Position numbers and translations under genes: made by a program. A stretch of DNA of 52,590 nt from a bacterium (GTDB lineage Bacteria; Patescibacteriota; Minisyncoccia; Minisyncoccales; JAUYFS01). Positions within the stretch are counted from its first letter, which is position 1, and every line of letters begins with the position of its first letter. Shown here in pieces: positions 7,313 to 9,243 of the stretch. The stretch covers positions 1 through 52,590 of the forward strand of contig JAUYFS010000014.1 in assembly GCA_030689665.1 (NCBI GenBank). The letters are read 5' to 3'. The notes below the pieces were generated by a model. That model was not told the origin of the DNA and did not search any database. It worked only from the letters and a program-made list of their open reading frames with translations.

Positions 7313-8038
7313 ATGTTTGTTAATTATAGAACTCAGGCGATTGTTTTGGGCCGCAAAAATATCAACGAGGCTGATTCTTTGGTTTATTTTTTTACTAAAG
7401 AATTTGGTTTGCTTAAAATTTTGGGAAAATCAATCCGCAAAATTTCCTCAAAATTAAAATCCGCAGCGCGAGATTTTAATTTTGAGGAAATTGAATTTGT
7501 TCAGGGCAAGAAATTCAAGATTTTAACCGATATTTATTCTGTAAAAAAATTGCCCGAAATAAACAAGGACTTGAAAAAGAAAAAACTTTGCCATTTTATC
7601 TGCGATTTTTTTATAGAATTTGTCAGAGAGCCGGAAAAAGACCTGAAATTGTGGAACCTTTTGGCTTTTTCTTTGCAAATGACAAGGGACTGGGATAAAA
7701 ACCTATATTTGGTTTATCAGTTTTTTATTTGGAATTTTTTGAAAAACATTGGGTTTGGCATTGATTTTGAAAAATGTTTTAATTGCCATAAAAAATTAAA
7801 ACCCCAGAAAAGTTTTTATTTTACCAAAAAGGGCATTGTTTGCGATTTTTGCGAAGGGAAATCTGTTGCCGGGAAAAAAATAAAAATAAGCCAGATTACG
7901 CTTAAAATTTTAAGGACAATACAAAAAAAAGACATAAAACTTTTAAGCCGCTTGAAGGCGGCTGATAAAAATATTTTGAAAGAAATGGATTTAATGACAG
8001 CTTATTACCTTGGAATTATTCGCAAAAACGAACAATAA
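7313..8038 (+). CDS. recO: DNA repair protein RecO
   Basis: The N-terminal OB-fold pattern (AIVLGRKNINEADSLVYFFTKEFGLLKILGKS) and the C-terminal CxxC...CxxC zinc motif are typical of RecO. Confidence 0.8.
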   Translation: MFVNYRTQAIVLGRKNINEADSLVYFFTKEFGLLKILGKSIRKISSKLKSAARDFNFEEIEFVQGKKFKILTDIYSVKKLPEINKDLKKKKLCHFICDFFIEFVREPEKDLKLWNLLAFSLQMTRDWDKNLYLVYQFFIWNFLKNIGFGIDFEKCFNCHKKLKPQKSFYFTKKGIVCDFCEGKSVAGKKIKISQITLKILRTIQKKDIKLLSRLKAADKNILKEMDLMTAYYLGIIRKNEQ

Positions 8039-8049
8039 TCCGAAAACCA

Positions 8050-8084
8050 AAAGCTGTCGTGGGGTCTGACCCCACGACAGCTTT
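8050..8084 (+). terminator. Terminator-like perfect hairpin after recO, same family as 7262-7292
   Basis: AAAGCTGTCGTGGGGTC / GACCCCACGACAGCTTT. It has the same AGCTG ends and GGTCTGACC centre as the ileS hairpin. Confidence 0.6.
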
Positions 8085-8121
8085 CTCTATAATTCATACT
8101 ATATACTACATACTTCTTTCC

Positions 8122-8150
8122 TTGACAAATACAAACTAATTTGCTAATAT
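8122..8150 (+). promoter_or_regulatory. Sigma-70-like promoter (TTGACA-17-TAATAT)
   Basis: TTGACA at 8122-8127, a 17-nt spacer, and TAATAT at 8145-8150. Confidence 0.6.
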
Positions 8151-8156
8151 ATAAAT

Positions 8157-8475
8157 AGAGAGGAGTTAAATAAATAATAGTTTAGATAGCGTTTTTCCGG
8201 TTCTACAATTTTAGAAAAGAACTGGACTCAAGTAATCTTGAGAACTATCTAAACACTTAATAAGGAGGAATATATGGGTTGTCATTCCTCATGATATTAA
8301 AAGTTTTAATATCGTTGCAGGACAACCCGAATATGGAGAGCGAGAAAAAATCTTTCCAGATGAAGCGGTTCATCTCAAATAAATCGCGCATCTGAAATCT
8401 ATTTGAAAGATTTCCTTTTTCCTCTCCTTTTCCTTTTTTATACAAAGTTTTCAGGGGCCCGTCCTCTGATTTTTT
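8157..8475 (+). ncRNA. Candidate roughly 320-nt structured RNA with its own promoter and terminator (unclassified). Contains a 6-codon uORF.
   Basis: Three-way junction: P1 8180-8189/8245-8254, P2 8197-8204/8218-8225 (with one G-U valid only on +), P3 8227-8232/8237-8242. AAGGAGG at 8262-8268 lies 5 nt before ATG 8274 (MGCHSS, stop at 8292-8294) and is pairable with ATTCCTC at 8284-8290. The terminator TCAGGGG-CCCGT-CCTCTGA (8451-8469) is followed by TTTTTT. Confidence 0.45.
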
Positions 8476-8520
8476 GATTGACAAAAAGGAGAAATTTTTT
8501 ATTCTTTTTATTCTTTTAAT

Positions 8521-8674
8521 TTTTCATTTTACATTTTTCGCTTTGCATTTTACATTTCTTTTGTTTTGCGTTTTTCGTTTTACATTTTGCGTTTTGACTT
8601 TTGACATTTAAGTTTATGCTTCATGCTTTATGCTTCATGTTTCAGGTTTCATGTTTCATGCTTCATGATTTTCT
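8521..8674. repeat. Array of 22 consecutive degenerate heptads (T-tract heptads, then ATGCTTC/ATGTTTC heptads)
   Basis: Manual phasing gives ttttcat|tttacat|ttttcgc|tttgcat|tttacat|...|cttcatg|ctttatg|cttcatg|tttcagg|tttcatg|tttcatg|cttcatg with no slip in the 7-nt register. Confidence 0.75.
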
Positions 8675-8677
8675 GCC

Positions 8678-8706
8678 TTGACACAAAAAATTTCTTTTGT
8701 TAAGGT
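8678..8706 (+). promoter_or_regulatory. Possible rpsL operon promoter (TTGACA-17-TAAGGT)
   Basis: TTGACA at 8678-8683. The -10 candidate TAAGGT at 8701-8706 is imperfect. Confidence 0.4.
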
Positions 8707-8740
8707 AAAAATAATTAGCGCATAAGCGCTGTTTTAAATT

Positions 8741-8810
8741 AAATTCACCTTGTTAAATACTGCTTCGCAGTAATTTCGCTGAAAGCGAAATTATTTAACA
8801 GGGTAAAAAA
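8741..8810 (+). promoter_or_regulatory. rpsL 5' leader hairpin, a diverged member of the anti-SD/SD palindrome family
   Basis: ACCTTGTTAAATA (8747-8759) pairs with TATTTAACAGGGT (8792-8804) with one T-G pair. It encloses two small hairpins (CTGC-TTCG-CAG; AATTTCGCT-GAA-AGCGAAATT). The right arm ends 7 nt before ATG 8812. Confidence 0.55.
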
Positions 8811-8811
8811 T

Positions 8812-9243
8812 ATGCCGACAATTCACCAGTTAATGAAAAGGCCAAGAAAACAAATGAAAAAGCGCCACAAAGCGCCTGCTTTGTCATTTGCTTTTAATGT
8901 TTTAAAAAACAGGCCAAAAGATTTTCCTTCTTCTTTTAAAAGAGGCGTTTGCGTCAAGGTTTTTACCATGACTCCGAAAAAACCAAACTCTGCTTTGAGA
9001 AAAGTGGCAAGGGTCCGTTTAACAAATGGAATGGAGGTTACTGCCTATATTCCGGGAGTGGGACATAATCTTCAAGAGCACGCGGTTGTTTTAATCAGGG
9101 GCGGAAGGGTTAAAGATTTGCCTGGCGTCAGATACCACATTGTCAGGGGAATTTTGGACACTTCCGGAGTTGAAGGAAGAAAAACATCAAGAAGTTTATA
9201 CGGCGCCAAAAAAGGCAAAGGCGGCGGTTCGGCTAAAAAATAA
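8812..9243 (+). CDS. rpsL: 30S ribosomal protein S12
   Basis: MPTIHQL...[16 protein letters not shown]...[10 protein letters not shown] are classic S12 blocks. Confidence 0.97.

Follow-up and report, generated by a model that had tools for sequence, protein, structure and literature searches.

A promoter-to-terminator unit with two covarying RNA modules upstream of rpsL in a Patescibacteria genome

Structured 5′ untranslated regions (5′UTRs) can stabilise the mRNAs that carry them, as exemplified by the ompA 5′UTR and by the stem-loops at the 5′ end of Gram-positive mRNAs, which shield these against RNase J. To our knowledge, the non-coding RNA of the Patescibacteria (CPR), whose genomes are tiny and whose members are largely uncultured, is almost unstudied, and a literature search for structured RNAs of the CPR returned nothing specific.

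Here we analyse a unit in a 52,590-nt stretch of DNA (hereafter the window) from the patescibacterial genome G000 (455 kb, 35% GC, 33 contigs, 96.5% complete). Two RNA modules of the unit have homologues in other genomes and covary with them, and the cargo protein found beside these homologues is absent from G000. With modest confidence, we favour the reading that the unit is a cargo-less copy, and specifically a remnant, of a modular small-gene cassette that is patchily distributed in this order of Patescibacteria. Like the stabilisers mentioned above, the cassette has a structure that starts a few nucleotides after the predicted transcription start, is followed by a strong Shine-Dalgarno (SD) sequence and precedes unrelated cargo genes. 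Unlike them, its leader is a specific three-way junction that covaries across genera, the copy in the window has no gene, and the stabilising effect is putative.

Architecture of the recO-rpsL spacer

The unit occupies the 773-nt spacer between recO (7313-8038), whose terminator lies at 8050-8084, and rpsL (8812 onward). It is single-copy, and no part of it recurs elsewhere in the genome. The original prediction described a discrete plus-strand unit running from a promoter to a terminator without a credible protein gene, and every element named there is present at or near its predicted position. Three covariance models are used below, namely R1 (seeded on the long hairpin of the window), R2 (built from the window junction alone) and R3 (rebuilt from five junction sequences including the window). 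The unit comprises the following features:

8122-8150, plus strand: sigma-70-type promoter, TTGACA-17-TAATAT with an extended -10 TG
8157-8179, plus strand: purine-rich 5′ leader (AUAGAGAGGAG...), predicted to pair with the U/C-rich 3′ tail
8180-8254, plus strand: three-way-junction 5′ leader module with helices P1, P2 and P3 and a UAAU loop, from folding, model R3 and covariation
8263-8294, plus strand: putative vestigial translation start (SD AAGGAGG, ATG, five more codons, TGA), read from the sequence and matching the cassette layout
8270-8334, plus strand: lineage-specific middle hairpin in the place of the cargo gene, from folding and inverted repeats
8335-8440, plus strand: conserved long bulged hairpin with a U-rich tail, the terminator module of the cassette, from model R1 and covariation
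8451-8475, plus strand: second, simple intrinsic terminator with a 7-bp GC-rich stem followed by T6, from a terminator scan (pair probability 0.98)

The promoter scan placed TTGACA at 8122-8127 and TAATAT at 8145-8150 with 17 nt between them and the TG at 8142-8143, giving 10 of 12 consensus matches, and transcription likely starts near 8157. BLAST matches to this promoter were found in five related genomes, and a similarity search of the unit against phage DNA returned the promoter as its sole match, in Lactococcus phages. The surrounding region (7900-8900) contains 8 promoter-like sites, compared with 3.3 ± 1.9 in shuffled sequences, and 6 terminator-like sites, compared with 0.8 ± 1.0. At the other end of the unit, the terminator stem at 8451-8469 and its T6 have no counterpart in the relatives examined. 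The long hairpin at 8335-8427, missed by the original prediction, carries its own U-rich tail (8428-8440), and the unit therefore ends in two tandem terminators. Pairing of the leader with the 3′ tail (8158-8164/8431-8437) is predicted with a mean pair probability of 0.84. Most relatives have a short local leader hairpin after the promoter in place of the purine-rich leader, and this hairpin is missing from the window and from G047.

Folding of the plus strand over 8155-8478 gave -102.3 kcal/mol, compared with -66.8 ± 5.0 for dinucleotide shuffles (z = -7.08; 0 of 100 as good), and the minus strand of the same segment reached z = -5.61. The original assignment to the plus strand, which had relied on a G-U pair in P2, is borne out by the presence of the G8199-U8223 wobble and by model scores (114 versus 15 bits for R2; 57 versus 32 bits for one R1 member). 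Folding also confirmed the predicted three-way junction with a 10-bp P1 and two hairpins. P1 pairs 8180-8189 with 8245-8254 (10 bp, pair probability 1.00), P2 pairs 8196-8204 with 8218-8226 (9 bp, including the wobble), and P3 pairs 8227-8232 with 8237-8242 (6 bp, UAAU loop), with probabilities of 0.97-1.00 across the three helices.

Downstream of the junction, AAGGAGG (8263-8269) is separated by 4 nt from an ATG at 8274 that opens the reading frame MGCHSS, closed by a TGA ending at 8294. This is the SD sequence in front of a six-codon ORF that had been described, and the competing pairings proposed around it are likewise both present as inverted repeats (8270-8283/8321-8334 and 8260-8271/8284-8295). 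The middle hairpin that overlaps the ORF spans 65 nt, has the form AUAU/UGGGUUGUC...GACAACCCG/AUAU with an inner 11-bp AU-rich hairpin, and has neither a homologue in relatives nor a second copy in G000. Pfam searches of the other two ORFs in the unit, a 75-aa ORF on the minus strand (8257-8484) and a 38-aa ORF on the plus strand (8279-8395), returned nothing. The suspicion that the minus-strand ORF might have real homologues was not substantiated, as none was found among 5.8 billion proteins.

Searches with all 4227 families of Rfam release 15 gave no gathering-level match anywhere in the window. At E <= 10, the best matches over the unit were noise (RsaE, E = 4.5), and 16 related loci searched at the gathering threshold yielded tRNAs only.

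The same promoter type (TTGACAAATA...TAATTTGCTAATAT) also drives, in four genomes, a ~180-nt RNA locus that lies immediately before murB:

L004:1498-1720, L005:1496-1690, L007:702-900 and L008:1499-1700: murB-upstream RNA locus in genomes G032, G021, G039 and G029

The first segment of this locus (GUGAGUGCG...ACUAAGUC) ends in a terminator and is followed by a second promoter-like site and then a hairpin, the loop of which (GCACUCAC-AAAA-GACUUAGU) is complementary to the first segment. The locus has no match in Rfam and may represent a tandem sense/anti-sense RNA pair.

Homologous modules and complete cassettes

Homologues of the junction were identified with R2 in G025, upstream of a terminator hairpin (E ~1e-3), in G202, upstream of a gene for a 65-aa protein (E = 3e-5), and in six metagenomic contigs (including L051-L056, L052), upstream of the same 65-aa gene family (best E = 2e-8). 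R3 scored the window, one of its own five building sequences, at 61.9 bits (E = 1e-13) and added junction copies in G047, G002 and G051; outside the order, G202 was its only find in the class-level sample. Weak R2 matches in G150 and G109 were rejected since they are located in coding or unrelated sequence, and a pattern scan of metagenomes for the P3-J-P1 segment returned three contigs, all from cassettes already found.

The promoter precedes every homologous junction at the same distance, with all eight leaders following a TTGACA-17-TATAAT-type promoter and the junction lying 25-45 nt downstream of it, as is also the case in the window. An AAGGAGG-type SD sequence follows the junction after a gap of 7-60 nt in seven of the eight leaders (the exception being G025) and is accompanied by a start codon, which is ATG in six of the seven and apparently TTG in G047. 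Rather than a gene of at least 60 aa, only the six-codon ORF follows the junction in the window.

The second module, the long terminator hairpin, follows the sequence plan GGAGAG...AAAUCUUUC-CAGAUG...CUGAAAUC...GAAAGAUUU...CUCUCC with a U-rich tail. The window copy has the GGAGAG/CUCUCC basal stem, the AAAUCUUUC/GAAAGAUUU stem, an AAAUC bulge on the 3′ side, the covarying apical hairpin and the U-run. BLAST aligned a sequence from G030, a member of the same order and another family, to positions 8334-8439, and its apical helix shows a fully compensated change (GCGGUU/AAUCGC versus GUGAAC/GUUCAC). R1 recovered 12 further copies at E-values of 1e-8 to 1e-21 in 10 other genomes. Within the order, copies occur in 11 of 150 other sampled genomes (1-4 per genome), and among ~145 genomes sampled from other orders of the class, two copies were found in a single genome (G202). 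All copies of the hairpin share the orientation of the gene upstream, and a U-run comes after each. In several cases an unrelated protein gene stands directly before the hairpin, with its reading frame ending within the first bases of the latter, and the frames that run through it are inconsistent between members, indicating that it is not coding. Short versions without the apical part occur in L039 and L051.

Both modules are conserved and covary in other genomes, as the original prediction would have it. In alignments fitted to the models, and thus favouring pairing, the only eight junction sequences available are paired in 97.2% of cells, with double-sided changes at 15 of 23 pairs compared with at most 4 in slid controls. 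For the only twelve hairpin sequences available, 92.8% of cells are paired and 13 of 33 pairs show double-sided changes (2-5 double-changed pairs and at most 60% pairing in partner-slid controls). The window junction is the most divergent of the eight and lacks the inner P2 hairpin as well as the motif GGUUCCUAAAAGRGUAAU, which is common to the 5′ junction and the 3′UTR domain of complete cassettes. All three of its helices are perfect despite ~50% sequence divergence.

The complete cassette is seen directly in two loci, L049 and L052, in the order promoter, leader hairpin, junction, SD sequence and ATG, an optional 101-aa ORF and the 65-aa ORF, followed at the 3′ end by a conserved 3′UTR domain of ~110 nt, a small linker hairpin, the long terminator hairpin and a U-run. 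The cargo behind the leader varies between a 65-70-aa protein, a pair of 101-aa and 65-aa proteins, a 68-aa protein, a 180-aa protein and a GH1-like glycosidase, the most frequent being the 65-70-aa three-helix protein. The neighbourhoods of the modules are also unrelated: they are found beside tRNA genes, before murD, between thyX and rplL, and before nusA, with the loci of G030, G100 and G139 showing a murI-murD arrangement of the cassette.

The 65-aa family (L049:963-1157, L052:1266-1463) has at least 161 members, is restricted to Patescibacteria and is without a Pfam family. Its AlphaFold model shows three helices (pLDDT 87) with no fold match in the PDB below E = 1, and annotation searches gave only sub-threshold RHH_3 matches (E ~0.01) and no notable PHROG match. 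The protein is encoded in 22 of 150 other genomes of the order and is absent from both G000 and G025. Of the 11 nucleotides that distinguish the gene in L051 from that in L052, where it lies in a different neighbourhood, 10 are third codon positions; the two copies encode identical proteins, which argues that the 65-aa protein is real and under strong purifying selection.

Against this layout, the start site in the window can be interpreted. Complete cassettes carry AAAGGAGG(U)GA and then the cargo-gene ATG at the position of the stub, and the post-junction CACUUAAUAAGGAGG of the window corresponds to their GCACCUAAA...AAAGGAGG. Because the stub matches the cargo-gene start of complete cassettes, we read the SD sequence, ATG and six-codon ORF as the probable vestigial start site of a lost cargo gene. 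The peptide MGCHSS itself is unique to the window. A second cargo-less copy, derived independently of that in the window, is present in G025. It is 256 nt long and has neither SD sequence nor ATG at the corresponding position, while its junction is almost the same as in gene-bearing copies.

Two further features of related loci are worth recording. The ~110-nt 3′UTR domain follows the 65-aa gene in L052 (1470-1585), L034, L032, L033, L039, L040, L051 and L073, has the plan GGAGAAGGCAAGGUUG-hairpin-CCUAAAAGGGUAAUUG...hairpin...CAGAACAAGAAC...CCCUUCUCCCC and is not in Rfam; two of its hairpins covary in an alignment of only four sequences, making it a candidate motif. Contig C7 of G103 holds two copies of the terminator hairpin 800 nt apart (L031:701-803 and L031:1501-1603) after different ORFs, one of which has an HExxH-like motif, with the same promoter-like segment of ~40 nt after each hairpin. 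This layout looks like a tandem cassette array.

Variation at the site of the unit was assessed through RecO homologues at 80%, 77% and 54% identity, which were traced to contigs. The 77% group has the same ileS-recO-...-rpsL-rpsG-fusA order and lacks the unit entirely. Contigs of the 80% group and of one near-identical strain break just after recO (~177 nt after it in L019-L021, just past it in L083, and shortly after it in L022 and L023), which suggests strain heterogeneity or a repeat at this position. The slot in the 77% group holds a 246-aa gene (L024:3848-4588) with a K/E-rich middle, which belongs to no Pfam family, is dissimilar to the unit at the nucleotide level and has no counterpart in the window. 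The promoter of this gene (TTTTTTGATTGACA...TATTCT) is resembled by a promoter-like TTGACA-16-TATTCT at 8478-8505 of the window, which may be an orphaned remnant of it. T-rich and CATGCTT-type heptad repeats fill 8497-8674 of the window, and beyond them a promoter-like site for rpsL at 8678-8706 (TTGACA-17-TAAGGT) was read by eye and is not listed by the promoter scan. This rpsL promoter and the 3′ part of the heptad array are 90% identical between the window and the 77% group.

Origin and possible roles of the cargo-less unit

We propose that the window retains the promoter, three-way junction, SD sequence with ATG, and terminator hairpin of the cassette, and that the cargo gene together with the 3′UTR domain was replaced by the 65-nt lineage-specific hairpin. 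The promoter, RNA ends and abundance of the unit are predictions. Transcription from 8157 would produce a very stable non-coding RNA of ~280-320 nt in which a 5′UTR is fused to a 3′UTR, and its 3′ end is predicted at one of the two tandem terminators. The leader of complete cassettes could serve as a 5′ stabiliser or a translation-control element, with the hairpin acting as an efficient terminator. The cargo-less transcript is most likely a still-transcribed remnant without a role in rpsL expression.

The main alternative, which we hold to be possible and decidedly less probable than the remnant, is that the leader-terminator fusion was exapted as a functional sRNA and kept for action in trans. 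Such an RNA could titrate a factor that binds the UTR modules, or base-pair through its SD-like and anti-SD-like stretches. Perfect helices at ~50% divergence, a consensus-like promoter and a streamlined genome of only 455 kb, from which useless DNA would be expected to be deleted, fit continued selection and function better than decay; furthermore, cargo-less copies have arisen at least twice (G000 and G025), each being the sole copy in its genome. However, the unit is absent from the syntenic site of the closest relatives, the near identity of the G025 copy to gene-bearing copies suggests that its gene was deleted recently and not that an sRNA was kept for long, and the two cargo-less copies share no conserved unpaired sequence outside the common modules, all of which argue for a remnant. 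We also know of no target or partner for such an sRNA. A related proposal, which we regard as doubtful, is that a single factor, possibly the 65-aa protein, binds both the junction leader and the bulged hairpin as two new RNA motifs specific to Patescibacteria, and that the cargo-less fusion was kept as a regulatory or decoy RNA.

We consider it very improbable that the unit is a small-protein or type I toxin-like gene, with the 38-aa or the 75-aa ORF expressed from a folded mRNA. The window RNA does resemble hok/sok-type mRNAs in being ~300 nt long and heavily folded, with predicted pairing of its 5′ and 3′ ends and an SD sequence that could be masked. Unlike hok/sok, however, it has no conserved ORF and no hydrophobic toxin ORF, the hydrophobic stretch of the 38-aa ORF being only ~11 residues and neither ORF having one of transmembrane length, and the promoter scan found no minus-strand promoter-like site for an antisense RNA inside the unit. 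The database searches of the two ORFs described above also speak against such a gene, and the 38-aa ORF starts with TTG and overlaps the conserved hairpin, where the frame differs or is stopped in other members.

The proposals that the unit controls the rpsL-rpsG-fusA operon, either as a leader-peptide attenuator or as a cis-regulatory leader, both put forward with the original prediction, could not be upheld, and we now rate them as more improbable still. They were attractive given that rpsL follows 340 nt downstream on the same strand and that the unit combines an SD-led mini-ORF with mutually exclusive pairings. However, rpsL is separated from the unit by two terminators, ~200 nt of T-rich heptads and a promoter of its own. 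Nor is the mini-ORF conserved, and complete cassettes carry a real gene in its place; a perfect SD sequence with a mini-ORF therefore need not mean a leader peptide. Homologous modules adjoin unrelated genes, and relatives with the same synteny keep the rpsL promoter without the unit. A variable slot next to a retained promoter argues that rpsL expression is independent of the unit.

Equally improbable is a pile-up of palindromic or MITE-like DNA repeats without meaning at the RNA level. Both strands fold far better than shuffles and the slot is strain-variable, as such repeats would predict, yet the unit has no repeated part in the genome, its G-U pairs and model scores distinguish the plus strand, and all members show one fixed orientation relative to promoters, upstream genes and U-runs. 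Least probable of all is a divergent housekeeping RNA (SRP RNA or 6S RNA), a reading prompted by the failure of the SRP (RF00169, RF01854) and 6S (RF00013) models to find anything in G000, and excluded by the patchy distribution of the modules, which were detected in only ~3-8% of the genomes sampled from the order, did not turn up at the syntenic site of the nearest relatives and form UTRs of protein genes in other genomes, and by the lack of an SRP domain IV motif or a 6S-like rod with a central bubble. RF00169 and RF00013 likewise found nothing in five relatives (G030, G025, G103, G100 and G031, of which two are single-contig genomes). RNase P RNA and tmRNA were detected on other contigs of G000. 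It may be that SRP RNA has diverged too far in this order for the Rfam models to detect.

Comparison with known systems

The junction leader and the 95-nt bulged terminator hairpin constitute two covariation-supported motifs new to Rfam. As a cargo-less copy, the unit in the window would provide a concrete example of gene loss from a cassette leaving behind a promoter-driven folded RNA, and hence of how mRNA UTRs could give rise to a potential sRNA.

The leader resembles the aptamers of purine-type riboswitches (RF00167) in forming a P1-P2-P3 junction in the 5′UTR just upstream of the SD sequence, to which the window adds a terminator. It differs from them in having no Rfam match at E <= 10, almost empty junction strands, a 4-nt UAAU loop on P3 and no conserved loop-loop motif, and the heterogeneity of the downstream genes, which include small proteins and a GH1-like gene, argues against a riboswitch. 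As a whole, the cassette is similar to phage 'moron'-type cassettes, being a self-contained promoter-to-terminator unit with a patchy distribution, varied neighbourhoods and, in G000, a strain-variable slot. Unlike morons, it has no consistently adjacent phage or mobile-element genes and shows no target-site duplications, and copies from different contexts share 83-88% identity instead of being identical, which leaves recent mobility of the cassette unsupported. Finally, the terminator module is comparable to intrinsic terminators and 3′UTR-derived sRNAs, since its hairpin and U-run are always located at the 3′ end of a transcription unit. It departs from ordinary intrinsic terminators in its length of ~95 nt and in the conservation, across families, of its AAAUC 3′ bulge, apical hairpin and stem sequence.
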